Source: Paratractidigestivibacter sp. (GTDB lineage: Bacteria; Bacteroidota; Bacteroidia; Bacteroidales; Bacteroidaceae). From it: a DNA stretch of 64,000 nt. The notes below the pieces were generated by a model, which worked only from the letters and a program-made list of their open reading frames with translations, did no database searches and had not been told where the DNA came from. Position 1 is the stretch's first letter, and each line of letters starts with the position of its first letter. The position numbers and the translations under genes were made by a program. Shown one piece after another: positions 9,950 to 46,900 of the stretch. The stretch covers positions 79,197 through 143,196 of the forward strand of contig CAVGNV010000002.1 of assembly GCA_963630695.1 (NCBI GenBank), written 5' to 3'.

Positions 9950-9954
9950 ATTCG

Positions 9955-9962
9955 TATCTTTG
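9955..9962 (+). promoter_or_regulatory. -7 promoter element for araC-manA
   Basis: TATCTTTG followed by CA, with TTTG at 9931-9934 as -33. Confidence 0.65.
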
Positions 9963-10020
9963 CAAACGGTCACAAGACGAAATACCATCGCTTGTGGCCG
10001 TTTACTAATACCCTATATCT

Positions 10021-10905: not shown

Positions 10906-10957
10906 GGCATAAGGAATCTTTAATCTGAAATAATCAAAGATAAAATTATACATAAAA

Positions 10958-18907: not shown

Positions 18908-18980
18908 GGTACCTTAGCTCAGGTGGTAGAGCAATGGACTGAAAATCCATGTGTCCTTGGTTCAACTCCAAGAGGTACCA
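18908..18980 (+). tRNA. tRNA-Phe (GAA)
   Basis: Cloverleaf: acceptor GGTACCT/AGGTACC, D-stem GCTC/GAGC, anticodon arm ATGGA-CTGAAAA-TCCAT, T-arm CTTGG-TTCAACT-CCAAG; CCA not encoded. Confidence 0.97.
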
Positions 18981-18994
18981 CTCCTCCTTTCATT

Positions 18995-19178: not shown

Positions 19179-20804
19179 ATGTTACAAAGGATACTCACTT
19201 GTTTATCATTCATTCTGCTATCATTGTCCATTGTCCGTGCGCAAGACTTTGATCTTACGCGCCAATATGAGTTGCTCGATCAAGCTATAAGTGAATATCC
19301 GCAGTACCTTAAACAGAAAGAACAACATATCGCCAAGCTCAAGCAAGCGGCTCGCCAAGCGGCAAACACACAAGCGCGGATAGATGCGTTGCTCAAGATC
19401 TACACCGTCTATCAGTCGTTTCAGAAAGACTCCGCCCTGGTCTATATCAACCAGTGCATCAAGCTTGCTAACGAAAACCGCCTCTACAATCAGCAAGCAA
19501 GGTATCAATCGCTGCTAGCCCAGCTCTATTCGGTCATCGGATCGTATAGCGAAGCCTTATCCGTGTTGCGTCAGGTGGATCGCAAAGCACTAGACAATCA
19601 AGGTTGGCAAGACTATTATTATGCGCTAAACAGTGTCTATCAGAATAGGGCATTAGTGGCGCAGAGCACAGATAAGACCCTCCCCGCACAATATTTTGCT
19701 ATCGCCGACCTCTATGGCGACTCGTTATTGCAATACGCTTCACCCCAGTGTGCCTTTGCCCTTCATCGTCAAGAGATCAATCTGACGCTCAAACATCGGT
19801 ACCAAGAAGCCTTGCGCATCAATGATCAGCAACTCAACGCGTGCAAGGACGATAATAGGCAGTTTGCCACCGTGGCCTTTAATCGCAACTTGATCTATAT
19901 GGCGATGAACGATAAGCGCAATGCCAAGGTGTGGCTTATCAAGTCGGCGATAGTAGATATCAAGTCGGCCATCATGGATCAGTCTGCCCTTTGGACACTT
20001 GCGGATATGCTTTGTGAGGATAAAGACGTGGAGCGAGCCAATCGTTACCTCCGTTTCTCCTATCAAGCCTTGTCCCACTTCAATGCGCAAACGCGTTATT
20101 GGCAAGTGTCACCTGTGCTTGATAAGATCGATTCGAGCTATCAGATATTGCTCGCACAGAACAATCTGCGTCTAAAGACCACCTTAGCCATCATCAGTAT
20201 CATGGCCCTAGCAATGGCGCTGTTCTGCCATTTCATATACAGACAAAAGCGATTGGCCAATAAGGCGCGCAATGAAGCGATGGAACTGAACCGCAAACTA
20301 TCTGAGCTCAACCATCAGCTTGCCGAATCTAATCAGGTTAAGGAAGAATATATCGGCCAGTTTCTTGCCTCATGCTCCCATTATATAGACCTTATAGAGC
20401 AACAACGCCTTGAGGTAAACAGGAAACTGCGTAAGAAACAATATGCCGAGCTGTCCGAGATGACTAGCTCTTCTGCGCTTAAGGATGAGGCTCTAGATGA
20501 GCTCTATGCCCATTTCGACTCAGCGTTCCTACATCTTTTCCCACATTTTGTGGAGCATCTCAACGGCCTTTTACGTGAGGATAGCCAGATTAAGTTGCCT
20601 AGCGACGGCCGACTCACACCCACCGTGCGCATCTTTGCCCTCATCCGTCTAGGTATTGACGATAGCAATAAGATTGCAGAGTTTCTCCATTACGCGGTAA
20701 ACACCATTTATAACTATCGTGCCAAACTCAAGAATGCAGCCAAGGGTGACCGCAATACTTTTGAGCAAGAAGTGAAACAATTAGGGCTAATTACTAAAAA
20801 GTGA
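19179..20804 (+). CDS. SusR-like (DUF6377) membrane-spanning sensor/transcription regulator 1
   Basis: Signal peptide, helical TPR-like periplasmic part, one TM, coiled coil, C-terminal RIFALIRLGIDDS.KIAEFLHY..NTIYNYR. Confidence 0.85.
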   Translation: MLQRILTCLSFILLSLSIVRAQDFDLTRQYELLDQAISEYPQYLKQKEQHIAKLKQAARQAANTQARIDALLKIYTVYQSFQKDSALVYINQCIKLANENRLYNQQARYQSLLAQLYSVIGSYSEALSVLRQVDRKALDNQGWQDYYYALNSVYQNRALVAQSTDKTLPAQYFAIADLYGDSLLQYASPQCAFALHRQEINLTLKHRYQEALRINDQQLNACKDDNRQFATVAFNRNLIYMAMNDKRNAKVWLIKSAIVDIKSAIMDQSALWTLADMLCEDKDVERANRYLRFSYQALSHFNAQTRYWQVSPVLDKIDSSYQILLAQNNLRLKTTLAIISIMALAMALFCHFIYRQKRLANKARNEAMELNRKLSELNHQLAESNQVKEEYIGQFLASCSHYIDLIEQQRLEVNRKLRKKQYAELSEMTSSSALKDEALDELYAHFDSAFLHLFPHFVEHLNGLLREDSQIKLPSDGRLTPTVRIFALIRLGIDDSNKIAEFLHYAVNTIYNYRAKLKNAAKGDRNTFEQEVKQLGLITKK

Positions 20805-20852
20805 GGAAAAACGTAGGCGCATAAATTCACACCTAACCTTACTTTTCCTCAC

Positions 20853-20987
20853 AAAGCTCCACTTTTAGTTTACTCTGTTGTTTTCTTATTAGCTTGTTAG
20901 TCAGTGTTTTGGAAGAAATCAAGTTTCCATTTCTTCCCCTTTTTGACTTTATACGGTTCCTCAAACCAAATCTTTCTTGTACTTTTG
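20853..20987 (+). promoter_or_regulatory. Promoter and putative SusR-like operator region for acyltransferase-GH3
   Basis: -7 TACTTTTG at 20980; upstream TCCACTTTTAGTTTACT, TTGTTAGTCAGTGTTTTG and TCCCCTTTT boxes at offsets similar to the 28.6 and 37.5 kb promoters. Confidence 0.55.
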
Positions 20988-21055
20988 CAAGTGAAGTAGT
21001 TCGGAGACCTAAATGTATTTGCAATCCAAAACTTTCATTAAAGAAAATCTAAACA

Positions 21056-22225
21056 ATGTCCAATTCTAATGTATATCTATCGTCTAAGCCTCGATATGAG
21101 ATTCTTGATGGTCTGAGAGGGGTAGCAGCTATGCTCGTAGTGGCTTTCCATCTGTTCGAGACCTATTACCATTCGGCCCCCAATCAGCCCGTCAATCATG
21201 GCTACTTGGCCGTCGACTTCTTCTTTGTCCTATCAGGATATGTCATTGGTTATGCCTATGATGATCGTTGGGACCGCATGACCACGTGGGGTTTTATTAA
21301 GCGTCGCTTGATACGTTTACACCCGATGGTGATCTTTGGTACGTTTATAGGAGCCTTATTGTTCTACTTTGGTCAGTGTTCAGCCTTTCCTTTGATTACC
21401 AGCACACCTTGGTACATCCTGTTGATGATTCTCTTGTGGTGTTTTACCATGATTCCTGTATCCAAGTGTTGTGATATTCGTGGATGGGCAGAGACCAATC
21501 CGCTCAATGGTCCGGCATGGACTTTACAGTGGGAATATATCGCCAACCTTCTCTACGCCCTTGTTATACGTCGCTTTTCTAAGTTTGCCTTGATGATCTG
21601 CGTAGCGCTTTTTGCTGTGCTGACCCTCATCCTGTGTCTTGATCTCGATGTTTTTGGCTTCCTTGCTGCGCGTTCCTATGCCTCATATACAGTTGTTGGT
21701 GGTTGGAGCCTCACCCCTGACCAACTGCAGATAGGCCTTACACGTCTGCTTTACCCCTTCTTCTGCGGTCTGCTCATATCCCGATTGGGCTTCTCCATTA
21801 AGATTAAAGGTGGTTTTTGGTGGTGCGCTGCCTTGCTAGCAGCGCTTCTTGTCATGCCCTGGATGGGCACTGGCGAGGTAGGAACGGGTCGAATGACCAA
21901 TGGTATCTATGAGGCGGTGTGCATCTTGGTGCTCTTCCCACTCATCGTTGCTGCAGGAGCAGGAAGCAGTGTGCTAGGTAAAAAGAGTCAGAAGATCAAC
22001 CATCTGCTTGGCGAGATATCCTATCCGCTTTACATCACCCATTATCCTTTTATCTATATGCAGATGGCTTGGGCAGAGCATCATGCCGAATTGCCCGCTA
22101 GCACACACGTCTTTGTATCCGTGTGTATCTTTATCCTTTCCTTGTTGGTAGCCTACGCAGCGTCACGTTTGTATGATTTGCCCGTGCGCCAGTGGTTGCG
22201 TCGCAAGTGCTTCAAAGCTGCGTAA
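21056..22225 (+). CDS. Acyltransferase-3 (OafA-like) membrane protein
   Basis: LDGLRGVAA..V.FH, LAVDFFFVLSGYV, RRLIRLHP, WTLQWEY, LGEISYPLYITH; about 10 TMs. Confidence 0.9.
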   Translation: MSNSNVYLSSKPRYEILDGLRGVAAMLVVAFHLFETYYHSAPNQPVNHGYLAVDFFFVLSGYVIGYAYDDRWDRMTTWGFIKRRLIRLHPMVIFGTFIGALLFYFGQCSAFPLITSTPWYILLMILLWCFTMIPVSKCCDIRGWAETNPLNGPAWTLQWEYIANLLYALVIRRFSKFALMICVALFAVLTLILCLDLDVFGFLAARSYASYTVVGGWSLTPDQLQIGLTRLLYPFFCGLLISRLGFSIKIKGGFWWCAALLAALLVMPWMGTGEVGTGRMTNGIYEAVCILVLFPLIVAAGAGSSVLGKKSQKINHLLGEISYPLYITHYPFIYMQMAWAEHHAELPASTHVFVSVCIFILSLLVAYAASRLYDLPVRQWLRRKCFKAA

Positions 22226-22284
22226 ACTCCTTTTATGCTAATTAAATATCAATCAATACAACCTATCAAACACTAATCAGTTTT

Positions 22285-24618: not shown

Positions 24619-24725
24619 TGTAATCATTCGTAACCCGTTGAGGGTCTAAGATAAATCAAAAACGTGCAAGAGAGCATGTCGTAAAGCATCATTACGATGC
24701 AATGTTAAAGTTTAGTTTTTCTTCG

Positions 24726-24778
24726 CTGCAGGTGATTTCTATCCTTTATTAAGATAGATTCACCTGCAGTTTGTGTTT
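24726..24778 (+). terminator. Terminator after GH3
   Basis: CTGCAGGTGATTTCTATC / GATAGATTCACCTGCAG followed by TTTGTGTTT. Confidence 0.75.
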
Positions 24779-24993
24779 ATAGGTGGTACCCATAAACATA
24801 TACACGTCCATCCCTAACCGCTATACATATAGGTTAGCCCCAGCGTTCTATCTATCAAATTCGCTTGTAAGGAATTTATTCTCTGTTGGTTTTGTCTCCA
24901 AATGGTCTAAATGTCATATTCTCAACGAATGACTTTCGCAGTTCGATTAGTTTTTCGTATCTTTGCAAAAATTAATACAATATTGTAATAGGA

Positions 24994-26640
24994 ATGCTCA
25001 AATCTATCTTCCGAACCACTTTCCTGTTATCCTTCTTCTTGTTGCCGATGATGGCAACGGCGCATGATAGTAGAGATGTAGAACGTGCTTTGCAACAACT
25101 TGACAATATCCTCACACATCGTCAGGAGTTTTTCAATCAGAAGCAGATGGCTCTTGAGGAACAAAAACGCGTGTTGGCAGAAGTGCACGAACCCAGTATA
25201 AGGCTTATCAAGTATGAACAGCTCTTTACAGACTATCTCCACTTTAATGGCGATTCGGCTGTGTTCTATGCTCAAAAAGCCGTTGAGACAGCCCAGAAGC
25301 TCAATGACCAGAAAGCCGTTACACAGGCACAAATCTATCTTTTGACCGCTTTGACACGCAAGGGTGTATATACCTTGGCTGATAAACTGAGTCATAAGAT
25401 AGGTGATGTGGCTGATGTGCCTAAAGAGTTTCAGTCGCAATATGCTTGTTGCTTGATAGATCAGTCGCTTCGTGTCAAGCGTTTGTCTACGCCACTCGAC
25501 TCCTTGCTTATCAGCACCAAGAAGACCTGGGATAGCTATTCGCCCTATATTGATCATAACGACTGGCAGTATCACTTCTATCAAGGCGCTTTGTTCCATG
25601 AAGGCGACATCGCACAGGTCAAGCAGATGCTCTCTGATGCGCCGCACCCCTCGTTTGTTGCAGCAGACCTAGCTTATACCGTTGCGCTTCTATATCTAGA
25701 GCAAGGCAATAACACCGAGTATGAATACTATCTTATTCAGTCGGCTATCAACGATGCAAAGCTAGCCAATACCGAGGTGCAATCGCTCATATCGCTTGTT
25801 CAGGTCCTTGCCCCTAAGCGTGATATGGAGCGCCTTTATCATTATTCGCAGGTCTGTGCGGAGAACATTACCACCTATCAAGATCTCACACGAGCGATGG
25901 ATGTGGTGGGCATGCTTAACCAGATCAATATGTGTTTCTACACATCCATACAGCATCGCATGATCATCATCTCGGTCATCGCAGGTCTGTTGGCTGTAGC
26001 TCTGGTGTTGGTGTTCTTCTCGTTACGCTACTCCATCCGTCGCAGAAACGATCTGAAGCGGTCGCTCTCACGCCTGGAGGAAGCTCAAGAAAATCAAGAA
26101 CGTCTCATCGAAAGCAAGGAACAGCTCAGTCAAGAGCTTCGTGTGGCCAATCATCAGCTACGTGGTAGCTTAAAGTCGTATAACACCAACTTTGTCAATG
26201 TCTATCGTCTTGTATCCAGCTATATGAGTTATGAGAACAAGATGCGCAAGTCGTTGACCGTTCAGATCAAGTCGGGCAACGTGCGTCAGGCGCTTCGCTC
26301 GCTCAGTTCCTCTTCAGAGATAGACGAGCAAGCCAAGGAGTTTTATCAGCATTTTGACCATGCGTTCCTCGGAATGTATTCTGATTACATTCAGAAGATC
26401 AATGCGTTGCTCAAGCCCGAGTATCGTATCGACCCTGCTACCACTGAGCTACCAAGCTCATTCCGCATCTATGCGCTTGTGGTGCTAGGCGTTACGGATA
26501 GCGTAAGCATAGCCGAGTTCTTACATTATTCGCCTCAGACCATCTACAATTATCGTCTGCGTATGCGCCGTCAGGCTTGTGTGCCAGAGAAAGAGTTTGA
26601 ATCGCGTGTGGAACATCTCTATGCTGCTGTGGAAGAGTAA
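24994..26640 (+). CDS. SusR-like (DUF6377) sensor/transcription regulator 2
   Basis: Same architecture as 19179; C-terminal RIYALVVLGVTDSVSIAEFLHYSPQTIYNYR; promoter TATCTTTG at 24958. Confidence 0.83.
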   Translation: MLKSIFRTTFLLSFFLLPMMATAHDSRDVERALQQLDNILTHRQEFFNQKQMALEEQKRVLAEVHEPSIRLIKYEQLFTDYLHFNGDSAVFYAQKAVETAQKLNDQKAVTQAQIYLLTALTRKGVYTLADKLSHKIGDVADVPKEFQSQYACCLIDQSLRVKRLSTPLDSLLISTKKTWDSYSPYIDHNDWQYHFYQGALFHEGDIAQVKQMLSDAPHPSFVAADLAYTVALLYLEQGNNTEYEYYLIQSAINDAKLANTEVQSLISLVQVLAPKRDMERLYHYSQVCAENITTYQDLTRAMDVVGMLNQINMCFYTSIQHRMIIISVIAGLLAVALVLVFFSLRYSIRRRNDLKRSLSRLEEAQENQERLIESKEQLSQELRVANHQLRGSLKSYNTNFVNVYRLVSSYMSYENKMRKSLTVQIKSGNVRQALRSLSSSSEIDEQAKEFYQHFDHAFLGMYSDYIQKINALLKPEYRIDPATTELPSSFRIYALVVLGVTDSVSIAEFLHYSPQTIYNYRLRMRRQACVPEKEFESRVEHLYAAVEE

Positions 26641-26740
26641 CCCCGTCTGTGCGCACTAAAGCTCCACCGAAGCGCACTGAATCCGAACTGATGCTCTCTA
26701 TTGCCACGTTGATACGCAGAAAGCAACCGATATAAAAAGC

Positions 26741-26773
26741 ATTGCGGCTCTCCAGTCACTGGAGAGCCGCAAT
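26741..26773. terminator. Bidirectional terminator between regulator 2 and carboxylesterase
   Basis: Near-perfect palindrome ATTGCGGCTCTCCAGT-C-ACTGGAGAGCCGCAAT flanked by A- and T-rich tracts. Confidence 0.85.
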
Positions 26774-26923
26774 TATTTGTAGTGGAGACTTGTTAGTTGA
26801 GGTGGGATTGGCAACCGAAAACTTAACTATTATCTATTAACAGATTTAGCCAATCCCAACCTTTTACGCGTGTACTATAATTTCCACGCAGAGATAATTT
26901 ACTATAATTAATCTATGAAACTA

Positions 26924-28528
26924 TTATTTCTTGAGCAATAAAGGATCGATGGTGTTGTAACGTGCTTCCACCTTTGGATCTACAACCTGCTTGCTAACCA
27001 AGTCGATGTGCATCACTGGAGCTACGCTCTTGCCATTGGTGGTGTCCCACTGAGGCAAACCAAGACCATTAGGATTACCTGTCTTCACGAAGTTGAGGTA
27101 GAACTGCTGGAAGATTTCAGATACCTGGTAGTCGCTTGCGTCCCACTTGAACATGGTGTTGGTAGCTAGGTTACCCATAGCATACTCGATATCGGCAGAG
27201 TGAACAGCGCCTGGGTTAGCTGGAACCTTAGGAGCATCAGCCTTTTTCTCGGTTGTACCGCCCGCTAGACCAGGTTCTTTGTCGGTCAGAGTGGTCTCTG
27301 GACGTGGGTGGCAGTAAACGTAACGATATACGGGTTGCTTGCTGGTCTGACGCAAAAGGTCTGTCCATTTCCATGTAGAGTAGGCGATGAACATATCACC
27401 ACCGAGGGTATAACCAGGCATTGTCACGATGTCAGCATCGGTCTTGATACCATAAAGGTCAAGGATGGTGTTGGCGTCAGTGCCGAAGTAAGCCTCTACA
27501 GCAGGCTTAAGGTTCTCCACTGTAGGAGCCTTACCGCCCATGAACACCATTACTGGAAGTTCGCAGTTGTTGTTACCGATAAGTGCTGGCACCTGTGCTT
27601 GTTCGCCTTTGAGATATGTCTCGAGTGGTTGCTCGGTGAAGAACTTGCCATCTACACAGTACATTGGTACGCCACCGGGCTTGTATGCCTTGTTGAGCTC
27701 CTCGGCAGACATATTGCGCAGTTCGCTGATTTTCTTGCAACCTACCTGCTTAGCAAATGCCTCACCAGCCTTCTCTGCGTCCTTTAGCGATGCCACAGCG
27801 CGTGAACCTACTACGCTACCGCTTGAAGCCATCACCTGATTGATCAATCCTTTAGACATAGGTGATACCATCAAGGCGCTTACTGACATTGAACCTGCAC
27901 TCTCACCATCAATTGTTACGCGGTTAGGATCGCCACCAAAGGCAGCAATATTGTCCTTAACCCACTTGATAGCGGCTGCCTGATCCATGAAGCCATAGTT
28001 GCCTGAGCCTTTATAGTCGGTCTCTTTTGAAAGCTGTGGATGAGCAAAGAAGCCGAAGATACCTTCACGATAGTTGGCTGTTACCACGATGATGCCCTTA
28101 CGAGCGAGGGTCAAACCTTGATAGCGAGGTTCGCTACCTGAACCTGATGTGAGACCACCACCATTAAAGTAGATCAACACTGGCAACTTCTCATTGCCGG
28201 TCTTGTAAGGTGACCATACGTTAAGGTAAAGACAATCTTCAGAAAACTTGTCTGTTCCGAAGATCATATCACCAAATGCGTTATACTGGATGGGGTTAGG
28301 ACCAAACTCCTTTGCGCTTCGCACACCGCTCCATGCTTGTACTGGCTGTGGCGCTTTCCAACGAAGGTCGCCCACTGGAGGTGCTGCAAAAGGTACACCC
28401 TTGAAGATTTTTACACCTGACGAGTCTACTCCCTCGAGTACACCTGCCTGAACACGAACCTGAGGTCCTTGTGCCATAGCAACGATAGTCATTGCTAATG
28501 CGGCAATAGATAAAAGAATTCTCTTCAT
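26924..28528 (-). CDS. Type-B carboxylesterase, secreted
   Basis: Signal peptide; FKGVPFAAPPVGDLRW, SEDCLYLNVW, NGGG oxyanion hole, GESAG Ser, GAVHSADIEY His. Confidence 0.93.
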   Translation of the reverse strand: MKRILLSIAALAMTIVAMAQGPQVRVQAGVLEGVDSSGVKIFKGVPFAAPPVGDLRWKAPQPVQAWSGVRSAKEFGPNPIQYNAFGDMIFGTDKFSEDCLYLNVWSPYKTGNEKLPVLIYFNGGGLTSGSGSEPRYQGLTLARKGIIVVTANYREGIFGFFAHPQLSKETDYKGSGNYGFMDQAAAIKWVKDNIAAFGGDPNRVTIDGESAGSMSVSALMVSPMSKGLINQVMASSGSVVGSRAVASLKDAEKAGEAFAKQVGCKKISELRNMSAEELNKAYKPGGVPMYCVDGKFFTEQPLETYLKGEQAQVPALIGNNNCELPVMVFMGGKAPTVENLKPAVEAYFGTDANTILDLYGIKTDADIVTMPGYTLGGDMFIAYSTWKWTDLLRQTSKQPVYRYVYCHPRPETTLTDKEPGLAGGTTEKKADAPKVPANPGAVHSADIEYAMGNLATNTMFKWDASDYQVSEIFQQFYLNFVKTGNPNGLGLPQWDTTNGKSVAPVMHIDLVSKQVVDPKVEARYNTIDPLLLKK

Positions 28529-28577
28529 TTTTAGTTAGTTGTTGTTAGGTTTATTGTTATTCAAATTTTTCTGTTTG

Positions 28578-28702
28578 CAAAAGTAATGGCTTTCTTCTAG
28601 ATAATCAATAGGTAGTAAACCATAAAAGTAAAGTTTTAGAATTGCTTTATGCTTGATTATCAGATGATTTGCAAAATGAATCGGTTAGAAAAAGTAAACT
28701 TT
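28578..28702 (-). promoter_or_regulatory. Carboxylesterase promoter with conserved operator boxes
   Basis: -7 TACTTTTG (28578-28585 rc); plus-strand GTAGTAAA 28612, AAAAGTAAA 28624, TTGATTATCAGAT 28653, AAAAAGTAAACTTT 28689; same layout as 37442-37567. Confidence 0.75.
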
Positions 28703-28803
28703 CTCTTCCTTCTGTTCATAGCTTACCAGTTACTCTTCATTAGCATCTGTTTCCCATTCCCATACGTCCTCGTTCATCTACTGACGGAGGTGCTTCGAGC
28801 GGG

Positions 28804-28930
28804 ATAATCAATTTATTTTTCCTACAAAATTAATTTATTTTTCTGATATAAATAATTTATTTTTCAGTTTAAAATCATATCCATCGGAAAACGAAAGCGC
28901 CTTTACAGGCTTTTGAAAGTGCCCGTTTCG
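28804..28930. repeat. Dispersed 22-bp-period element, copy 2
   Basis: AATTTATTTTT units with AATT at 28810, 28832, 28854; further phased GAAAGYGCC at 28893 and 28915. Confidence 0.8.
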
Positions 28931-28970
28931 GCTTGTTCTCCCGATGCTCATGTTGTCCCGAATGTGAGAT

Positions 28971-29036
28971 AATGGTCGGAGCGGAGAATCTCTGCTCCGA
29001 CCATTGTTGAGGCGAGGGTGATACTATTCACCCTCG
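28971..29036 (-). terminator. Tandem hairpins ending the GH3-TonB-NH-GH3 operon
   Basis: AATGGTCGGAGCGGAGA / TCTCTGCTCCGACCATT and CGAGGGTGA / TCACCCTCG stems. Confidence 0.7.
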
Positions 29037-29062
29037 ATGGGTGTGTCTTGAGATTGATGCCC

Positions 29063-31384
29063 TTATTTGTATTTCTGTGTACGAGAGTCGCGAATCACAC
29101 CGCTCCAGTTGAGACCGAAGCCGAAGTCGTAGCGGTTGCCCTCTGAATCGAAATAAGGAACCATATCGCGAGGCACGTCTTCCAGCTGCTCTTCCACGGT
29201 CTTCATGTCACGTGGCATCTGGCATGGAAGCAAAGCTGAAGGTTCGTTCTTGCCACTGATGAGGTCAAGGAAAGGCTGGTTGCTGGTACCAAAGCTTACG
29301 AGGATAGCATCGGCTGCCTTCTCAAACTCGGCCACCACTACGGGGCGAGTAGCTGATAGAGCCACTACCACAGGCTTGTTGCCCATAGCCTTCTTGGTGT
29401 CAAGCACCATTTGCAGGTCGTCGCGGTTAGCAGTCTTCACGGTTTTGCCCTTGTAGGTACGGTTGGTGAAGCTCTCTTTAGGATCGCCACCGCCCATACT
29501 CACTTCGCGTGCGAGGGTTGCGGTGTAGTCGTTATACTGCAAACTGATAGGCACATAACCATTGCCACCCTTTGCTACATCGTCTACGTCATAACCAGTG
29601 CCACTCATAGGACCTTCAATAAAGCAGAGAGCAAAGTCGGCTTCAGATGCATTGTCCACCACCTGGTAGTACTTGCTTGCTATATTCAGATCGATAGGAT
29701 ACTCCCAATAGTCCTTGGTCTTGTTGCCGAAGAAGTCGGTCACAGATGGATAATGACGTTTGGGGATATACACCTTTAGACGACTATCCTTGAGCGGAAG
29801 CGTGTTCTGATGATTCTTTAGCATCACGATACTCTTCACCTGAGCCTCATATCCTTTCTGCATAAAGTCCTTGTTGCCAACGATGGCTTTGGTCTCAGCT
29901 ACGTCAAGATAAGGATTTTCAAAGAGACCGGTCTCAAACATCGGCATCAACAAGCGGCGAGCTGACTCACGGATGCGCTTGTTCCAGGCATCATTGCCAA
30001 ACTCCTTGCGGCCCATAGCAAATGCTTCGAGTACAGGACCCTTATCGTTGTTACCGCCAAACTGGTCCACACCGGCTTTCAAGATCTCATAGTGACGCTG
30101 CGCTACCGATAGTGTCTCTACGCCCCAGCACATGCCGCCGAAGTCTTTCACGGCATTGTTGTCACGTGTCACAGCCCAGTCGGTACATACCACACCGTCA
30201 TATCCGTACTTGTTTCGGAGCAGATCGGTCACGATGTAATGGCTGAAGTTGTTACCAACGTTCTTGCCCGATGGGTCGATACCAGTAGCAATGGTGTAGT
30301 AAGGCATGATAGCACCTACTTTTGAGGTAGGTCCGTCAAGTTTGAAAGCACCCTCAAGGAACGATTGTAGGTGCTGATTGAAGTTGTTGCCAGGGTACAC
30401 AGCATACTTACCATAGCAGAAGTGGGCGTCACGTCCGCCTTCTTCAGGACCACCACTAGGCCAGTGTTTCGCCATAGCAATCACGCTTTCGTATCCCCAT
30501 CCGTTGGCAATCTCTTTGTCGCCCTTTGAGGTTTGGAAACCATCAATGTATGCTCTACCAAGGTCAGTGGTAAGGTTTGGATCCCCACCAAAGGTACCAG
30601 TGAATCGTGTCCAACGTGGTTCTGATGCGAGGTCGATCTGTGGAGAGAGGGCTGTGGTGATACCCAATGCACGATATTCTTTGGCTGCTATCTCGCCAAA
30701 CTCTCTGACAATCTCGGGTGAGAAAGTAGCCGCTAGTCCCAAAGAGGTAGGCCAACGAGAGATGTCACCGCCCGCACCATAGTTGTATTCGGCGTTAGCG
30801 GTTGTCTCATGACGAGGGTCAGTGGAGTTGTTGGTAGGGATACCATGTCCTAGACCCTCCACGTATGCTTGCATGTTGTTGCTCCATTTGGCTGCCACCT
30901 CAGAGCTCTTCACCTTAGTTACAAGTACGGCGCGTACGTTGTCTTCCTTGAGAAACTTCTTCTGCAAGTCGCTCAGGTCAGATGCTTTGCAACCACTCTT
31001 GTCGAAAGGCTTGCCTTTATAGGTTGATGCGCCGTAGCCCGTGCTAAGCGCTGGCACCTGTTGATGAGCCGAATAAAGCATCAGTCCGGCTATCTCGTCA
31101 TCGCTAAGTTGGGATGCAAGGTCACGAGCGCGTTCGTCAAAGGAAAGTCGCCAGTCCTCATATTTGTCGAGTTTGCCGTTGCGGTTAAGGTCTTTGAACA
31201 CGCATCCGTCCTTCTCAATGAGTTTCACGCCCGACTTAGGAGAGTAGCCTAGCGTAGGACCGTTGGGCTGTTCCACGAGGTTGTATTGTCCTTTCTTGAT
31301 TTGTTTCCATTTAGGAGCGGCTGCCCACGAGCCTAATACGAGCATCGTTGCAGCAGAAAGAATGAAAATCTGATTTGTCTTCAT
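29063..31384 (-). CDS. GH3 beta-glycosidase (subtype with N-terminal KDLNRNGKLDKYEDWR motif), secreted
   Basis: Signal peptide; STDPRH, SEPRWTRF.GTFG, KHWP.GGPEEGGRDAH, CTDW nucleophile, DQFGG, SIVMLKN. Confidence 0.9.
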   Translation of the reverse strand: MKTNQIFILSAATMLVLGSWAAAPKWKQIKKGQYNLVEQPNGPTLGYSPKSGVKLIEKDGCVFKDLNRNGKLDKYEDWRLSFDERARDLASQLSDDEIAGLMLYSAHQQVPALSTGYGASTYKGKPFDKSGCKASDLSDLQKKFLKEDNVRAVLVTKVKSSEVAAKWSNNMQAYVEGLGHGIPTNNSTDPRHETTANAEYNYGAGGDISRWPTSLGLAATFSPEIVREFGEIAAKEYRALGITTALSPQIDLASEPRWTRFTGTFGGDPNLTTDLGRAYIDGFQTSKGDKEIANGWGYESVIAMAKHWPSGGPEEGGRDAHFCYGKYAVYPGNNFNQHLQSFLEGAFKLDGPTSKVGAIMPYYTIATGIDPSGKNVGNNFSHYIVTDLLRNKYGYDGVVCTDWAVTRDNNAVKDFGGMCWGVETLSVAQRHYEILKAGVDQFGGNNDKGPVLEAFAMGRKEFGNDAWNKRIRESARRLLMPMFETGLFENPYLDVAETKAIVGNKDFMQKGYEAQVKSIVMLKNHQNTLPLKDSRLKVYIPKRHYPSVTDFFGNKTKDYWEYPIDLNIASKYYQVVDNASEADFALCFIEGPMSGTGYDVDDVAKGGNGYVPISLQYNDYTATLAREVSMGGGDPKESFTNRTYKGKTVKTANRDDLQMVLDTKKAMGNKPVVVALSATRPVVVAEFEKAADAILVSFGTSNQPFLDLISGKNEPSALLPCQMPRDMKTVEEQLEDVPRDMVPYFDSEGNRYDFGFGLNWSGVIRDSRTQKYK

Positions 31385-31420
31385 ACGTTAATCTTTGGTT
31401 AGGTTATACTAATATTGCTA

Positions 31421-32458
31421 TTATTTCTTAGAGTAACGGAGTGCCATCTTGGCTTCAAAGTCACCGAACATCAATCGTGTGTCCACGTGTGTATATACCC
31501 GGATGAGTCGACCATTGTGGTTCATGCCGTATGTTCCGTCCTCGTTAATTATAGGACATTGCACATATTGGTAGCTGCTAGAGCAAGGATCGGCTTCGAA
31601 ACCACTTTGAAGGGCAGTCAAGAGCACCAACGGACTGTCGCCCATGATATAACATTCGCCCATTGGGATGTTATACTTCTCACATGTATTGACGGTTTTA
31701 AGAATCTGTTCGCTGATATATTGGCCCACTTTGCCATAAGGCTCTATCTTGAGTTTCATTTCGTCCAAGCCATAAAGGCACTGGCGATATACGTCGCGGG
31801 GCACTTGCCAGATGCGCATCTTGCTGTCATTGAAAATCACGCGACCTGCGGCAATACTCAGATTGAGGTTGTATTCCACCTTCGAGTAGCCTGGAGGAGG
31901 GTAGGCGCTGACACCATTGTATTCCTGTCCGCCTATCCATACCAAGACCACCTTGTCATCAATGGATGGATCCATGAGGTGAGCGCAAGCTATATTGGTC
32001 AAGCTAGCACCGCAAAGCACGTACAGAGGATGGTCGGGTGTGCACTGACGAGCCTCGTCAACGATAGCCTGTGCACCTTGAGAGCGTATCGGTTCGGATG
32101 TAGAGGTTAGACCGGTTTCTGCTCCCGGCACCACCTTTACAGTGCCTTTGAGCCCCATCAGTTCAAGCACCTTTTCGGCTTTCTCGCATGATTCGGTAGC
32201 TTGGTCTTGGCGATTGGTGAATCCTCCCGCTGCAGAAAGGTGTCCGCCTACGATGGCGCGAACATCGCAAGTGGTGCAAAGCATCTGATGTGCCAACTGA
32301 AATAGTCCGTCAGGGTCACCACAAAAGTCGTTATCAATCACCACTTTCACCTTGTTCAGACGATTGGTGGTGCTAGCGTTTGTTGTCTTTTGTGCCCAAG
32401 CTGATGCGCTTAGGGTGAAGAGAAGCAACAGAGCTACTATCTTTTGTATCTTGTTCAT
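31421..32458 (-). CDS. Secreted nucleoside-hydrolase (IUNH)-like protein
   Basis: Signal peptide ASAWA; VVIDNDFCGDPDG N-terminal Asp cluster, ASLTNIACA, VWIGG, EYNL, MGDSPLVL. Confidence 0.78.
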   Translation of the reverse strand: MNKIQKIVALLLLFTLSASAWAQKTTNASTTNRLNKVKVVIDNDFCGDPDGLFQLAHQMLCTTCDVRAIVGGHLSAAGGFTNRQDQATESCEKAEKVLELMGLKGTVKVVPGAETGLTSTSEPIRSQGAQAIVDEARQCTPDHPLYVLCGASLTNIACAHLMDPSIDDKVVLVWIGGQEYNGVSAYPPPGYSKVEYNLNLSIAAGRVIFNDSKMRIWQVPRDVYRQCLYGLDEMKLKIEPYGKVGQYISEQILKTVNTCEKYNIPMGECYIMGDSPLVLLTALQSGFEADPCSSSYQYVQCPIINEDGTYGMNHNGRLIRVYTHVDTRLMFGDFEAKMALRYSKK

Positions 32459-32471
32459 AAGTTAATCGTTT

Positions 32472-32534
32472 AAAAAAGACCGTGCCGCTCCTTATTAATG
32501 CCACATAGGCGACATTTCTTAAAGAGTGGCACGG
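32472..32534 (-). terminator. Intra-operon hairpin plus U-tract after the TonB receptor
   Basis: CCGTGCCGCTC / GAGTGGCACGG stem; TCTTTTTT follows on the minus strand. Confidence 0.65.
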
Positions 32535-32574
32535 CTGCATGAAAAAAGTTAAAATATCTATACTAAAACAACCT

Positions 32575-34860
32575 TTAGAAATTGATGGTCGTAGAGAGTG
32601 ATACCTCGAATGGGCGGATATAAGATCCTGACATGAGGTAGTTCTTATACTTGCTTGTGTCAGTTACAAGGTCAGCAGCGCTGATTGAACCCGTAGCACC
32701 GCTCTGGTTGAAGATGTTCACTACGTTAAGAGCAAAGTTGACCTTCTTGTTCAGTGCATAGCTCAAGCCACCGAATGACTCCCAGTGACCGTTGAAGTAT
32801 AGGCTATTGGTCTTGTTGATGTATTGCTTGCTGAAGTAACGGAAGCTCAACCATACTCGCCACTGCTTCCAAGCGTATGAAGGATCGAGCTCGATGAGGG
32901 TCTTAGACATAGCGGTAACAGTGTTGTCGGTTACGTCTGCACCATCGGTTACACCGTCGGGGAAGGTTGCAAACACCTTAAACTTCTTGTAAACAGGGTT
33001 CTGCAAAGTCAACAATCCATGGAAGGTGAAGCCCTTGAACGGAGTGAGCACTACGTCAGTGGTCCATCCTATGGTCTGAATGTTATAGGTGATAGGCTGT
33101 GTTACGCTCACCTCAGTACCTGCTTTGTAACCACCGCCATCGCTCTGCATGGTGTGATAGAAGTTGGTACGGCTCTTATAGTTGGTCTGAGAGATGAATG
33201 AAACCTGTGATACCAATTGCATCCAAGGTGTGTTGTAGAAGATACCACCGCGTCCCATGTTGATGTTCACTGGTGCTGTGGTAGGCATGCTAGCACCTGC
33301 ATAGTCCTGAAGGTTAGGACGCTGACGAACATAAACATACTCGCCTACGAGACCGAAACCGTGAGAGATGGTGTAACGGATGTTGTATGTGAGGGCTGGG
33401 TTGAGCCAGTCGCCTGTGAAACGAGTCAGTTTGCTGGTTCCGTTGTTGAGATACCAACCCATGGTACGGGTGTTATAGGTATCATTATCGGTTGGGTTCA
33501 AAGCACCACGACCACTATATGCGAGGTATTCGAGGCGTGCACCGAGGCTCATCCACAAGTGGCGTGAAATGGTCCAGTCGTCACTCAGGTAGATAGCCAT
33601 CTTGTTTTCATGACCGTCATAGTACTCACCGCTACCTGGGTTGAAACTCATGTAAGGTTGGAGTTGGCCATCTGAGCTCTTCACATAGAGCTGAGCAGGA
33701 TCTGGACATACCTCATGTGCCATCACGGTGTTCATCTGCTTTACCTGAGCGCGGTTGTACCAGAAGTTGGCACCGATACGCCAAGAGTGTCTTTGGTTCT
33801 TGCTCTTGCCTGTGAGAACTGCAGTGGTGAGCCAAGAACGTTCATATCCAGGAACGTACATCATCCAGCGGTTCTGCACTTTGTCGCCTTTGTATGCGGT
33901 TCCGTCAGCTAGATAGTAGCCGCCATTGTTGTCTACGATACCTGAAACGGCACTCATAGCCATGCTTACATCACCGAGCTTCATCTTGCTGGCTACGTTA
34001 AGGTGTGTTCCACTCTTGAAGTCGTAGTCGAGATTGAAGGTCAACTGATGGTTGTCCGTTGTACCAGCGTCCTTCCATGTGGTCTTTTTCACCTCGCCAG
34101 TGATCACGTCTTTATAGTAGAATGATGAGGCTTCGTTTCCATAATAAGAGTCGGTACCATAGTTGAAACCATTGTATTTCTTCACCGAGCCATCACCTAC
34201 GAATACGAATGGAGCGTAAGAAGAACCATTAGATGTGTATCTAGAGAACTGATAGATCAAGCTCATGTAACCTCTTCCGTCAGCGAAGTGCTTGTCTACA
34301 CCAGCCTTATACACCTGTGTACGGTTTTGTAGGCGAGATGCTTCCATGTGTGCCGTACCTGGATCCCATACCTGATGGGTGTTGACAAAGTAGCCGAAGC
34401 CCTTTGCGATAGGACCGCCAATAGTAGCGTTGACGCTCTGACGACCATATTGGTTGAGCTGATAGTTGACAGTTCCGTTGAATTTGTCACCTGAACGACG
34501 GTGATGGCTATCCACGGTGTAGCCCACTGCACCAAACTGGAGAGCGGTTTCGGAGAGGCTCATCACTGAGATCTTGCTGTAAGCTGTGCCTCCAAACCAA
34601 GAGAAGTAAGGCATATCAGCCCAAACATTGTAGGAAACGGGTAATCCATCTTCGAAGATTGTTGCACTCAAAGATGAGGGTAGACCGATCGAAATCTGTC
34701 GTGGCTGGTCGGCGCTAGATGCGTTGAGCATCACGTTGCGGTTTTTCACCTCCTTTGAATTGTTCTCGGTGGAGTCTTTCTGAGCGGCGTCTTGTGCAAA
34801 AGATGTTGCGGGAAGCAAACAACTCATCAGTGCCAATGCGATGTACTTTTGTTTGTTCAT
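32575..34860 (-). CDS. Atypical TonB-dependent outer-membrane receptor (non-SusC)
   Basis: Signal peptide; short plug-like region (IFEDGLPV); alternating beta-strands (DDWTIS..LGARLEY, FALNVVNIFN); C-terminal Phe; no SusC signature and no SusD neighbour. Confidence 0.78.
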   Translation of the reverse strand: MNKQKYIALALMSCLLPATSFAQDAAQKDSTENNSKEVKNRNVMLNASSADQPRQISIGLPSSLSATIFEDGLPVSYNVWADMPYFSWFGGTAYSKISVMSLSETALQFGAVGYTVDSHHRRSGDKFNGTVNYQLNQYGRQSVNATIGGPIAKGFGYFVNTHQVWDPGTAHMEASRLQNRTQVYKAGVDKHFADGRGYMSLIYQFSRYTSNGSSYAPFVFVGDGSVKKYNGFNYGTDSYYGNEASSFYYKDVITGEVKKTTWKDAGTTDNHQLTFNLDYDFKSGTHLNVASKMKLGDVSMAMSAVSGIVDNNGGYYLADGTAYKGDKVQNRWMMYVPGYERSWLTTAVLTGKSKNQRHSWRIGANFWYNRAQVKQMNTVMAHEVCPDPAQLYVKSSDGQLQPYMSFNPGSGEYYDGHENKMAIYLSDDWTISRHLWMSLGARLEYLAYSGRGALNPTDNDTYNTRTMGWYLNNGTSKLTRFTGDWLNPALTYNIRYTISHGFGLVGEYVYVRQRPNLQDYAGASMPTTAPVNINMGRGGIFYNTPWMQLVSQVSFISQTNYKSRTNFYHTMQSDGGGYKAGTEVSVTQPITYNIQTIGWTTDVVLTPFKGFTFHGLLTLQNPVYKKFKVFATFPDGVTDGADVTDNTVTAMSKTLIELDPSYAWKQWRVWLSFRYFSKQYINKTNSLYFNGHWESFGGLSYALNKKVNFALNVVNIFNQSGATGSISAADLVTDTSKYKNYLMSGSYIRPFEVSLSTTINF

Positions 34861-35055
34861 AATTACGATAGGTAGTTAGTTAGGTTGCGCTTGCTTGTCT
34901 TGGTGTAGACCAACGACACGCAACGATTCGTTGTTTATTTATTTAGGTTTTCTTCTAGTTTTGATTTTGCCGTGTTATAGAGGACCCGGCAGAAAAGGGT
35001 AGGGGTGTTAGATATTGGTCTCCGGGGCGAGAGACCAATAGGATTCTTAGTTAGC

Positions 35056-37401
35056 TTATTTCTTACTGAGGATGTTCAGCTTTGTCTTTGGAGCCAACAC
35101 GTTGTGTACCTTCACCTTTGAAGCCTTGAGCTTCAGTGTGCCTTGGCCCTTGATGTCACGGCTTGAAGCAGCCACCTTTAATGTATATTCGCCTCCGTCA
35201 GCTACCCAAGCGCTGGCTTTCTCGTTGAATGAAGCAAGGTCAGCTTTGGCAACAACCAGTGTGAGGGTCTCGCTCTGTCCAGGGTTGAGGGTCTTGGTCT
35301 TAGCAAAAGCCTTGAGTTCCTGTGCTGGTTTCTCCACTGCGCCCTTAGGAGCGGTAACGTAGAGCTGTACCACTTCCTTGCCAGCGCGACGTCCTGTGTT
35401 AGTGATGGTCACGTTGACGTTAACGTTTTCGCCATTCTCAGCCACTTTCACGTCACTATAACCGAATGTGGTGTAAGATAGACCGTAGCCGAATGGGTAA
35501 GACACCTCTTTGTTGAAAGAGTCGAAGAAACGGTAACCTACATAGATACCTTCGTTGTAATTGGTGTAACCAACGTTTTCAACAGTTTGGTATTTGCTCA
35601 AGGTGCGATCCATAAAGTTTACTTCTACACCATCTGTTGGGAAGTTTTTAGAAGAAGGAATCTCGTCAAAGCCGATAGGCCAACTCATTGGCAACTTGCC
35701 TGAAGGAGTGAGACGACCTGACAAGAGGTCAGCTACAGAGTTACCAAACTCCTGTCCACACTGCCAAGGAAGAAGGATTGCATCAGGGATTTGCTTCCAA
35801 GAAGCAGTCTCAATCACGCCACCTACGTTGAGTACCACAACGGCTTTCTTGCCTGCTTTGTGGAAGGCAGCAGTCACCTTCTGTACCAATTGGAGTTCCT
35901 CAGAAGTGAGGTTGAAGTCTTTTGCGGTGCGGTCAGAACCCTCACCTGATAGGCGCTGGAGAGTGATCACAGCCACATCGTTGCTCTTAACGGCAGCGGC
36001 GAGGTCGTTGTCGCTAGGAACGGTCTCCTTAGGGAGGTCAGCGTTCTGCCACCATTCGCGTGGTGTCTTAGCGATTTCTTCCTTTGCATCCTTGATGTAA
36101 GAGGTATATGCGTTGAGGATAGTCTCATCTACGGTGTAGTTGTTGTTACGCAATCCCTCAACCAACGATACGGTGTAAGCACGGTTTACGTTACCCGAGC
36201 CAGTACCACCGGCAATTGGGTCATAACTTGCTACGCCATAGAGAGCCACGTTCTTGATGTTGCTAGCCAATGGAAGCACCTCATTGTTCTTCAGAAGAAC
36301 GGTTCCTTCAGCAGCAGAAGAGCGTGTAACCTGTGCGTGAGCCTTTAGGTCAGGGTTGTTGCTATACTTATATCCCTTGAAGCGGGGGCTCTTTACTACA
36401 AGCTCCAACACACGACGCACGTTGGTATCAAGCACGCTCTCATTGAGTTTGCCGCTCTTTACAGCTTCCTCGATAGCCACAGCGTCCCCTTCTACACCTG
36501 GTTCGATAAGGTCGTTACCTGCGATCATGTTCGCGGTACGGTCAGCCTTGCCATCTCTCCATACGGGGTCAGTGCCGCCAAACCAGTCGGTCATCACCAA
36601 GCCTTTGTATCCCCACTCGTCTCTAAGGATTGTGGTGAGAAGGTCTTTGCTTTCCGACGTCATCGTACCATTAATCAGATTGTATGACGACATCACCGTC
36701 CAAGGGTTGGATTTCTTTATCGCAATCTCAAATTGCTTAAGGTAAATCTCGCGTGCTGCACGCTGGCTCACACGTGAATCGTTACCCAAACGGCATGTCT
36801 CTTGGTTGTTGAAAGCGAAGTGTTTGATAGATGTGCCTACACCTTGGCTCTGCACACCGTTGATGTAAGCGGCTGCGATGTTACCTGCCAATACGGGATC
36901 TTCAGAGTAATACTCGAAGTTTCTTCCACACAAAGGATTGCGGTGGATACAAGCTCCAGGTGCGAGCAATACGTCAGCACCATATTCCAGCACCTCGTTA
37001 CCGATGGCTGTACCTACGCTTGTTACCAGGTTGACATCCCAACTACTTGCCAAGCAAGTTCCGATAGGGAAGTGGGTGCAATAGTAGGTGTGTGAGTCGT
37101 AAGGGCGGGTAGGGTTGATGCGCAGACCAGCAGGGCCGTCTGACAATACCACTGAAGGGATTCCGAGACGTGGAATGGCTGCGGTGGTTCCTGCAGCGCC
37201 CGGTACCAGTTTGGCGTATGAGCCAAGGTTACCTGTGGTAAGGCCGGCTGAACCTGTTCCAACCACCAATGTTGCTTTTTCTTTAAGTGTCATTGCGTGC
37301 AACACCTCATCGATATTATCTGCACGAAGCTGTGGTGTGTTTTGTGCAGAGAGGACTGTTGCGCAAGCAATAGATGTACACATGGTAATCAATCGTTTCA
37401 T
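35056..37401 (-). CDS. GH3 beta-glucosidase, secreted
   Basis: Signal peptide; LSDGPAGLR, RNPLCGRNFEYYSEDP, KHF, MSSYN, MTDW nucleophile, [12 protein letters not shown], Fn3-like C-terminus. Confidence 0.94.
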   Translation of the reverse strand: MKRLITMCTSIACATVLSAQNTPQLRADNIDEVLHAMTLKEKATLVVGTGSAGLTTGNLGSYAKLVPGAAGTTAAIPRLGIPSVVLSDGPAGLRINPTRPYDSHTYYCTHFPIGTCLASSWDVNLVTSVGTAIGNEVLEYGADVLLAPGACIHRNPLCGRNFEYYSEDPVLAGNIAAAYINGVQSQGVGTSIKHFAFNNQETCRLGNDSRVSQRAAREIYLKQFEIAIKKSNPWTVMSSYNLINGTMTSESKDLLTTILRDEWGYKGLVMTDWFGGTDPVWRDGKADRTANMIAGNDLIEPGVEGDAVAIEEAVKSGKLNESVLDTNVRRVLELVVKSPRFKGYKYSNNPDLKAHAQVTRSSAAEGTVLLKNNEVLPLASNIKNVALYGVASYDPIAGGTGSGNVNRAYTVSLVEGLRNNNYTVDETILNAYTSYIKDAKEEIAKTPREWWQNADLPKETVPSDNDLAAAVKSNDVAVITLQRLSGEGSDRTAKDFNLTSEELQLVQKVTAAFHKAGKKAVVVLNVGGVIETASWKQIPDAILLPWQCGQEFGNSVADLLSGRLTPSGKLPMSWPIGFDEIPSSKNFPTDGVEVNFMDRTLSKYQTVENVGYTNYNEGIYVGYRFFDSFNKEVSYPFGYGLSYTTFGYSDVKVAENGENVNVNVTITNTGRRAGKEVVQLYVTAPKGAVEKPAQELKAFAKTKTLNPGQSETLTLVVAKADLASFNEKASAWVADGGEYTLKVAASSRDIKGQGTLKLKASKVKVHNVLAPKTKLNILSKK

Positions 37402-37441: not shown

Positions 37442-37567
37442 CAAAGTTAATCTACTTTTTTACGACTTTCAATCAGTAGTAAAACGAAAAAGTAAATCCA
37501 TGTAAAATCAACATCCGTTGAATAACAGATAGTTAGCCGGATTAATAAATCTAAAAAAGTAAACTTT
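37442..37567 (-). promoter_or_regulatory. Promoter of the GH3-TonB-NH-GH3 operon with conserved operator boxes
   Basis: -7 TAACTTTG (37442-37449 rc); GTAGTAAA 37476, AAAAGTAAA 37488, TTGAATAACAGAT 37518, AAAAAGTAAACTTT 37554. Confidence 0.75.
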
Positions 37568-46586: not shown

Positions 46587-46684
46587 TTTCGTCCTTTTTG
46601 AGGGCAAAGTTAAGCATTCCAAACGAATTGACAAAATCTCTTATATAAATATATGTGAAACCAGCGTCACACCTTTCGTATGCC

Positions 46685-46832: not shown

Positions 46833-46900
46833 TAAGATGATAATTTGTCTATGTGGGTGAAAAAGCGTACCTTTGCAGTCTATATTTTGCTTATAAAACC

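Follow-up and report, generated by a model that had tools for sequence, protein, structure and literature searches.

Plant glycosides are handled in the Bacteroidaceae by systems that include several glycoside hydrolase family 3 (GH3) enzymes, as described for Bacteroides uniformis, and in Bacteroides thetaiotaomicron non-SusC TonB-dependent receptors are known both with and without lids (bioRxiv 10.1101/2023.03.17.533168). The bacterial enzymes that activate dietary and medicinal plant glycosides are only partly known. Platycosides are an acetyl-bearing class that needs a glucosidase, an apiosidase and a rhamnosidase, and a specific β-apiosidase was named as still needed in a review of their conversion from 2023 (PMC9952785). 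This study concerns a nine-gene block at 19179-37401 of a 64,000-nucleotide stretch of DNA, the window (contig CAVGNV010000002.1, positions 79,197 to 143,196), from a genome deposited as Paratractidigestivibacter sp. (2.67 Mb, 99% complete), whose nearest named relatives are Bacteroidaceae and Prevotella records. The block is two things: a six-gene core (24994-37401) and a left arm formed by the genes for SusR1, an acyltransferase and GH3a.

From the genes, folds, motifs, co-conservation and common repeat described below we infer the substrates and activities of the core. It is read, with a probability of roughly 55%, as a lid-less, SusD-free periplasmic pathway in which plant glycosides lose their acyl groups, apiose and glucose. 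The lid-less TonB receptor would import a small soluble glycoside, and a carboxylesterase would strip acetyl, malonyl or hydroxycinnamoyl groups from it. A secreted protein with a nucleoside hydrolase (NH) fold would then use a predicted Ca2+ site to hold a terminal apiofuranose by its cis-2,3-diol and cleave the apiose off; where a GH78 enzyme is present, it would remove rhamnose, and GH3c and GH3b would free glucose from differing aglycones or linkages. A product or substrate would activate SusR2, which would bind the 66/67-bp repeats. This cell would consume the glucose and leave apiose and aglycone for others. The candidates for its substrate are flavonoids with apiosyl-glucosyl groups, phenylethanoid glycosides, and saponins that bear both apiose and acetyl groups.

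The apiosidase activity proposed for the NH fold is the part of this reading not met in print, multi-GH3 glycoside systems and non-SusC receptors being already known. Among the papers listed in literature searches, from which most subscription journals are absent, none described this locus or an apiosidase with the NH fold. If the reading is right, a widespread family annotated as nucleoside hydrolases gains a new activity, and the function of Sde_0182/DUF1593 becomes testable with one chromogenic substrate. The predicted operator lends itself to a direct reporter assay for the inducer.

The six-gene core, its receptor and its operator

The core and its control elements comprise the following features.

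24994..26640, plus strand: SusR2, a DUF6377 one-component membrane sensor-activator, putative regulator of the core
26741..26773, between the convergent SusR2 and esterase genes: hairpin with a 15-bp stem, terminator-like on both strands
26924..28528, minus strand: type-B carboxylesterase, secreted, with its own SusR-type promoter
28614..28702, minus strand: direct repeat spaced 66 bp, upstream of the TAnnTTTG sequence at 28585, where SusR2 is predicted to act on the esterase gene
29063..31384, minus strand: GH3b, without an Fn3 domain, of the His/Asp-dyad type, related to 9ul7 and SN243
31421..32458, minus strand: NH-fold protein, secreted, predicted β-D-apiofuranosidase
32575..34860, minus strand: 761-aa TonB-dependent receptor of a SusD-less family
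35056..37401, minus strand: GH3c, periplasmic and of the β-glucosidase type (TIM barrel, sandwich and Fn3), first gene of the main operon
37478..37567, minus strand: direct repeat AAAGTTTACTTTTT ... 67 bp ... TTTACTTTT-N3-TTTACT, predicted SusR2 site of the main operon

All nine open reading frames of the block are intact, with the ends given in an earlier note on this DNA, and the domains named there were found. Profile searches identify Acyl_transf_3 with seven hydrophobic segments, three GH3 domains, COesterase, and PF01156 at 37 bits. The three GH3 proteins share 22-28% pairwise identity, in keeping with the different subtypes that the note had recognized, and the catalytic motifs it had called intact are in place (GH3a D312/E530; GH3c D272/E487; GH3b D402 with the D319-x-H321 dyad; esterase S210/E323/H443), the roles of these residues being presumed from established family knowledge. 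Each GH3 thus has a TIM-barrel Asp nucleophile and a Glu or His/Asp acid-base. Inspection by eye and hydropathy, rather than SignalP, agrees that the hydrolases carry signal peptides, and reveals no convincing lipobox among the signal peptides of the block. As the note had also said, a domain search of the block finds no SusD, endo-glycanase or lipoprotein, and no protein in it matches a SusC or SusD model.

Co-conservation was assessed in the 28 loci of the two receptor clades closest to the window, a set that includes near-duplicates and represents about 15 independent lineages. Within 9 kb of the receptor gene, the esterase and GH3c are each found in 27/28 loci, the NH gene in 23 and GH3b in 21, followed by a SusR-like gene (17/28), an Sde182-type NH-fold gene (10/28) and a GH78 rhamnosidase (8/28). 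GH3a is near the receptor in only three, namely the window itself and a pair of genomes almost identical to it. From one gut Bacteroidaceae lineage to another the order of the genes is shuffled. The combination of TonB receptor, NH, GH3 and DUF6377 genes that the note had put forward for a synteny search is therefore co-conserved as regards the core, in varying order; GH3a, the acyltransferase and SusR1 are not co-conserved with it. In six environmental loci the receptor, GH3b and NH genes occur with a BD-FAE-type esterase, mostly together with GH3c and an NrtR regulator; protein clusters of this clade bear the names Epilithonimonas and, from plant-associated bacteria, Chryseobacterium (including C. 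ginsenosidimutans) and Flavobacterium. The exchange of esterase family and regulator while the partners are kept argues that the core is a functional unit. None of the 49 receptor loci outside the nearest and environmental clades has NH, GH3b or GH3c. Accessory genes in orthologous loci encode rhamnosidases, extra esterases and sulfatases, and a GH30 is the only gene in them resembling an endo-glucanase model. It is quite probable that the core is a glycoside module.

GH3b is no marker of the module by itself: 20 regions read from 24 matches in one other genus contain no NH gene, a receptor-family gene in four and an esterase in three. Three further loci were noted in passing. Locus L003 is a 93%-identical receptor-GH3b-esterase-SusR2 copy on a contig labelled Lachnospiraceae, through misbinning or transfer; genome G003 has a truncated NH gene (L041 14398-14844), through decay or assembly error; and L089 4347-18808 (G216) is a variant in which the repeat of the core occurs at two sites and GH3c, a family receptor and SusR2 are joined by four sulfatases with an anaerobic sulfatase maturase, which suggests sulfated glycosides as its substrate.

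The best PDB matches of GH3c are the β-glucosidases 8idz (816 bits) and 2x40 (746 bits). GH3b scores higher against the β-glucosidase 9ul7 (327 bits) than against the β-glucuronidase SN243 (7qe1, 192 bits), and like this pair it has the Asp nucleophile and the dyad motif KH..GG....G.DxH. SN243 has a wide-open active site in which Arg136 recognizes the glucuronide (bioRxiv 10.1101/2022.04.25.489410). The better 9ul7 score favors a glucosidase, and GH3b aligns poorly over the stretch around Arg136, so that a glucuronidase may still apply. No paper was found on PDB entries 8IDZ and 9UL7.

The receptor is about 300 aa shorter than SusC and falls outside the SusC models; the receptor itself has no Pfam, NCBIfam or PDB sequence match. 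The note had called it an atypical TonB receptor, and its family supports that description: ESM clusters score 1.00 for the TonB type, PF00593 is detected in 4/24 members tested, and the family profile matches the solved TonB receptor 5fok at 2e-5. The C-terminal Phe, F761, is conserved, as expected of a C-terminal β-barrel. PF07715 is found in none of the 24 members, and a conserved N-terminal block (N42-G129) may represent a short plug, to judge by its sequence. The family occurs in 69/301 genomes of the taxonomic family, and many of its members carry the NCBI name '2,6-beta-D-fructofuranosidase'. It is thus SusD-less, invisible to Pfam and often misnamed.

Receptor loci were sampled as 60 regions chosen by rank from about 100 matches, together with loci from other searches, and 88 full-length members were placed in a tree and labelled by cargo. 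Clades differ in their small-sugar cargo: GH32 with a major facilitator superfamily (MFS) transporter, PfkB and a hybrid two-component system (HTCS); GH36 with a SusR-like gene; stand-alone receptors; and the glycoside set. No SusD match lies within 9 kb of the receptor in any of 39 glycoside-clade loci, which therefore have no tandem susC-susD pair. A search for a lipoprotein lid or glycan-binding protein beside the receptor found lipobox-like sequences in 2/70 co-oriented neighbors, both GH3c, by a regular expression that may miss some. Two paralogues in the same genome were also seen, one with GH32-MFS-PfkB-HTCS (G000:C17 ~46250-48550) and another that has a DUF6377 sensor gene on one side and a PF00756-type esterase gene on the other (G000:C7:62425-64644). 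In three relatives (L006 10001-12286; L058; L090) the receptor gene is present as two reading frames, reflecting decay or assembly error.

Both DUF6377 proteins have a SusR-like architecture (signal peptide, periplasmic sensor, one transmembrane helix, DUF6377 cytoplasmic domain) and match NF058541, the SusR model, at 457 and 270 bits, the cut-off for SusR proper being 480. Direct repeats lie above GH3c (67 bp) and the esterase (66 bp), each 46 bp upstream of a TAnnTTTG sequence (37449 and 28585), which we take to be the Bacteroidetes promoter element; a scan for sigma-70 promoters stayed at chance level (23 found, 27 expected). Operators of SusR-like regulators have been predicted as direct repeats with 67- or 77-bp spacing (PMC3878776), and a spacing of 66-68 bp was observed in 8/9 orthologous loci tried. 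The two repeats are predicted to be the SusR2 sites of the core. A matrix was built from eight of these nine distant orthologous promoters. Over the whole genome it places the GH3c site first (37.8) and the esterase site second (33.8), the next unrelated site scoring 15.3, a ranking that is partly circular because site picking was seeded with the window sequence. Held-out sites in L040, L048 and L089 are also matched; no site was found in L041, L044 and L058, all of which lack SusR2 (L041 and L058 have a gene with a cyclic-nucleotide (cNMP) domain instead). The block has three SusR-type promoters, and the full repeat is confined to those of GH3c-receptor-NH-GH3b and the esterase. Between GH3b and the esterase promoter lie three AT-rich 18-mers with 22-bp spacing (28804-28865). 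A look for sequencing runs covering the locus listed none, a result that says nothing about expression.

The cargo of the receptor's sister clades, GH32 in 20/49 loci and GH36 in 14/49, points to small oligosaccharides, and raises the alternative that the unit takes acylated or apiosylated oligosaccharides from rhamnogalacturonan II (RG-II), apiogalacturonan, xyloglucan or β-glucans, released by other polysaccharide utilization loci (PULs) or other bacteria. In its favor, some NH homologues accompany GH95, GH127, GH106 or GH43, the characterized relatives of GH3a cleave cello- and laminari-oligosaccharides, and a mannan PUL lies 7 kb away. It is nevertheless improbable: GH3b belongs to the open-site SN243/9ul7 group, homologues lie near aromatic-ring catabolism genes, and the sulfatase variant L089 uses the same repeat and GH3c. 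To our knowledge RG-II and apiogalacturonan contain no β-glucosides, which would leave two conserved GH3s unexplained.

The nucleoside-hydrolase-fold protein and apiose

The NH-fold protein was modelled with AlphaFold from a 110-row alignment (predicted local distance difference test score, pLDDT, 91), a single-sequence fold (pLDDT 38) having been discarded. The model has the NH fold, superposing on the plant NH 4kpo with Z 28.7 and a root-mean-square deviation of 2.6 Å over 269 residues, and on Sde_0182 (2yhg) with Z 23.8. Its motifs are DNDFCGDPD, H73, E195-Y-N197 and G273-D274. Residues D44, D48, D50, E179, Y180, E195, N197, Y224, Y270, G273 and D274 are invariant in 94/94 homologues, and H73 is kept in 93. 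The DxDxxxDD Ca2+ fingerprint thus appears to be represented by the variant DNDFCGDPD, the presumed ligands D44, D48, D50 and D274 being invariant in these 94 sequences. The His, Trp or Cys that precedes the distal Asp in NH groups I-III is absent, and G273 occupies the position of His241 in all 94. Apiose is the common O-linked plant furanose with a cis-2,3-diol. In NHs a Ca2+ held by the Asp cluster contacts the 2',3'-diol, while the base is protonated by His241, a residue missing from some active members; the Sde_0182 domain, reported to be inactive on nucleosides, has been proposed as a binding module (PMC8910321).

Granted that the core is a glycoside module, the NH-fold protein is probably an apiosidase, as judged from sequence. 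This prediction draws on genomic context as well as active-site chemistry. The context was examined in 92 NH-anchored loci, of which 80 are metagenome loci (the best of 517 confirmed) and 12 genome loci; an order-wide search found the NH gene in 2/401 genomes, too few to be informative. At E<=1e-30 the whole family amounts to 233 clusters. In L184 and L187 it stands beside genes for a split transketolase, a PF02952 isomerase, a GlpK-like kinase and a DUF2291 ATP-binding cassette (ABC) transporter. The pathway PWY-8089 is marked by a kinase and two transketolases (PMC13001218), which this cluster has. This transketolase-type apiose pathway lies beside the NH family in three Bacteroidota lineages. 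In genome G037 the apiose cluster belongs to a single series of genes read in one direction, which also includes SusC/D, several Sde182 genes, esterases and a carboxylesterase as well as a GH3c homologue, an NH gene, GH2 and GH30; the PUL recurs in G002 and G152, whose NH genes are located elsewhere. In G825 and G862 a cluster with 67-81% identity to this one has a PF13204 apiosidase-like gene at its flank. No PF13204-like gene was seen in the stretches read of the apiose PULs of G037, G002 and G152, and no protein of the block matches that GH140 apiosidase-like domain; the PF13204-type protein of L215 likewise has no match in this genome. The three apiose-linked NH genes lie in separate parts of the tree, and in the Sde182 tree the apiose-PUL genes have those from orthologous modules as their sister group. 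The PULs of G037 (L203 and L210; G037:C3 67-98 kb), G002 (L211, L222, L223) and G152 (L212, L249), with SusC/D, three to five Sde182/DUF1593 genes and several esterases, form a candidate apioside PUL.

A second apiose pathway, of the apionate type, came from plasmids, among which 16 NH-fold matches were obtained and 11 regions read. In Microvirga ossetica (L273, NZ_CP016618.1 218966-230167) an NH-fold homologue is the last gene in an ABC operon of the apionate pathway, with OiaX-like (453 bits) and OiaK-like (575 bits) proteins, each below a cut-off of 700, and a PGDH_C gene; upstream lies a D-apionate lactonase (762 bits, above its cut-off of 750). The homologue is 29% identical and has a variant N-terminal motif, with H73, EYN, Y224 and GD kept. 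Its product is cytoplasmic, and the transporter of this operon is of the oligosaccharide type. Four sphingomonad loci have the NH-fold gene with GH1, GH3, GH43 or GH106, glucosidases and a rhamnosidase being among these neighbors; around two of them lie genes of aromatic catabolism, including a tannase-type esterase and a quercetin dioxygenase. The Selenomonas ruminantium plasmid operon L278 (NC_017076.1 82026-92885), with GH78, a metallo-β-lactamase (MBL) hydrolase, a β-glucoside phosphotransferase system (PTS), DUF1593 and GH1, resembles the module and may be its equivalent in Bacillota. L182 (9845-11824) has the NH-fold domain fused to a GH43 domain, beside GH95 and GH127.

These contexts also bear on the alternative that, within the same glycoside module, the NH-fold protein is a riboside hydrolase (acting on nucleosides or on cytokinin or aryl ribosides) or a non-catalytic furanose binder. 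Its fold is closest to true NHs and the presumed Ca2+ ligands are retained; active NHs without His241 and the proposed binding role of Sde_0182 give it precedents (PMC8910321), and it fits both the lack of apiose catabolism here and a distant homologue in a nucleoside-type operon. It is nonetheless judged unlikely, since links to apiose recur at scattered points of the phylogeny and involve two pathways unrelated to each other. No nucleoside transporter stands beside the gene in any of the module maps, only two PfkB-motif genes were found in the genome, one of them a fructokinase, and a nucleoside hydrolase would need no glucosidases, esterases or rhamnosidases alongside. The nucleoside or N-glycoside substrate suggested in the note is accordingly considered less likely than an apiofuranoside.

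A number of observations weigh against the de-apiosylating core. This genome lacks a transketolase-type apiose pathway (best matches are housekeeping enzymes at 23-31%) and has no match to apionate-pathway genes, so that apiose removal in this cell would only uncap glucose. An AptA-like gene is present in only 3/14 family genomes with a strong NH match against 27/387 others (Fisher p 0.08, kin not being independent). Apiose genes are within the stored flank of only 2/92 NH loci, many of which have no carbohydrate neighbor, as is also the case for 2/11 plasmid loci read. The sugar-binding protein of L184 is nearest to one deposited as ribose-binding, and a Klebsiella homologue sits in an operon with a PfkB kinase and a nucleoside transporter; the Klebsiella, Paenibacillus and Shinella homologues are of a different motif class from the NH-fold protein. 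Enzymes of the GH3c type also cleave plain disaccharides. About 17 receptor homologues with 37-47% identity lack any module gene, and L003 carries the module without the NH gene. Besides the circularity of the operator ranking, one of nine training loci gave no site and the GH36 locus L082 scored 21.9.

For Sde182, the corresponding comparison with AptA-like genes in 301 genomes gives 9/17 against 72/284 (p 0.02, kin again not independent, with seven weaker transketolase matches scored as negative); most single-copy Sde182 loci read have no apiose genes. More tentatively, the secreted NH-fold family (DNDFxGDPD / GD type), probably with Sde182/DUF1593, could be a new class of Ca2+-dependent β-apiofuranosidases. 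It is tempting to speculate, with similar reserve, that this family was repurposed from N-ribosides to plant O-apiosides, and serves within lid-less TonB glycoside modules to uncap apiin-type flavonoids and saponins, from gut Prevotella to rhizosphere bacteria.

The left arm and the surroundings of the block

The remaining features of the block precede the core on the plus strand.

18908..18981, plus strand: tRNA-Phe(gaa), left boundary of the block
19179..20804, plus strand: SusR1, the other DUF6377 sensor (25% identity with SusR2), which probably controls the separate left arm
21056..22225, plus strand: Acyl_transf_3 inner-membrane acyltransferase, with a 74% paralogue elsewhere in the genome
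22285..24618, plus strand: GH3a, likely gluco-oligosaccharide exo-glucosidase, orthologue of BoGH3B and CapGH3b

GH3a matches BoGH3B (5jp0) at 1083 bits and CapGH3b (8va3) at 1011 bits. CapGH3b cleaves β-1,3- and β-1,4-gluco-oligosaccharides (PMC11471779). SusR1, the acyltransferase and GH3a are thus likely a separate neighbor, for gluco-oligosaccharides, and the note's inclusion of GH3a in the glycoside system is not upheld. Its view of the block as three catabolic units and their sensors in one SusD-independent system for small acylated plant glycosides is supported for the right two thirds, where a repeat is shared and genes are co-conserved, and is not supported for this arm.

The acyltransferase was the basis of a further proposal, that all 18 kb work as a single system and that this enzyme detoxifies released aglycones. 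In its favor, one near relative, with 86% DNA identity, has the block in one piece as the window does. Upstream of the acyltransferase, moreover, the first half-site of the core repeat stands at the same distance from the promoter element, so that cross-control may occur. The proposal is very improbable, as this promoter scores 3.3 against 37.8 and 33.8 for the core sites, and its single half-site and same geometry fit control by SusR1. The acyltransferase, matched in 17/57 genus genomes, is found in none of the 92 NH-anchored loci, and no GH3 or SusR gene lies within 1.5 kb of any of its 18 other listed genus matches, one of which is the 74% paralogue of the same genome. Aglycone acylation was rejected on these grounds. 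Acyl_transf_3 proteins usually acylate surface glycans.

The tRNA-Phe at the boundary led to a horizontal-transfer island being considered, but the GC content of the block is that of the window and no integrase was seen. At 14-11920 the window contains the downstream half of a β-mannan PUL, with a TIG-domain protein, GH5-BACON, an AXE1 esterase, GH26, GH130, an MFS transporter, an AGE epimerase, AraC and phosphomannose isomerase. On the other side, 11 kb from the module, a resistance-nodulation-division (RND) efflux pump (HlyD, AcrB, TolC-type) is followed by lpxA (48715-54882).

Comparison with described systems

The GshD/GshG/GghC systems of B. uniformis likewise use several GH3s in a member of the Bacteroidaceae for plant phenolic glycosides, and may differ from the core, as a commentary on them names no esterase, NH-fold gene or lid-less receptor (PMC13459116). 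With canonical SusC/SusD PULs the core has in common a TonB receptor, periplasmic glycosidases and an esterase, a SusR-like sensor and a direct-repeat operator (PMC3878776). It lacks, in contrast, SusD, a surface glycan-binding protein and an endo-enzyme, and its receptor is only 761 aa long.

Apiosidases of the GH140/PF13204 type have the activity predicted here, and a gene of this type adjoins the apiose cluster of G825 and G862; they belong to another protein family, and in the stretches read the PULs of G037, G002 and G152 have NH-fold genes instead. The PF01156 inosine-uridine NHs share the fold, an acidic motif presumed to bind Ca2+ and the E-x-N ribosyl contacts. Compared with them, the NH-fold protein is secreted, has DxDxxGDPD in place of DxDxxxDD and a Gly rather than His or Trp before the last Asp, has invariant H73, E179, Y180, Y224 and Y270, is 13-20% identical, and occurs in glycosidase and apiose contexts. 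Sde_0182/DUF1593 (PF07632) has the same fold and a carbohydrate context, and lies within the stored flank in 16/92 NH loci. It differs in being a separate family with an added β-sandwich domain, reported to be inactive on nucleosides and without a match in this genome.

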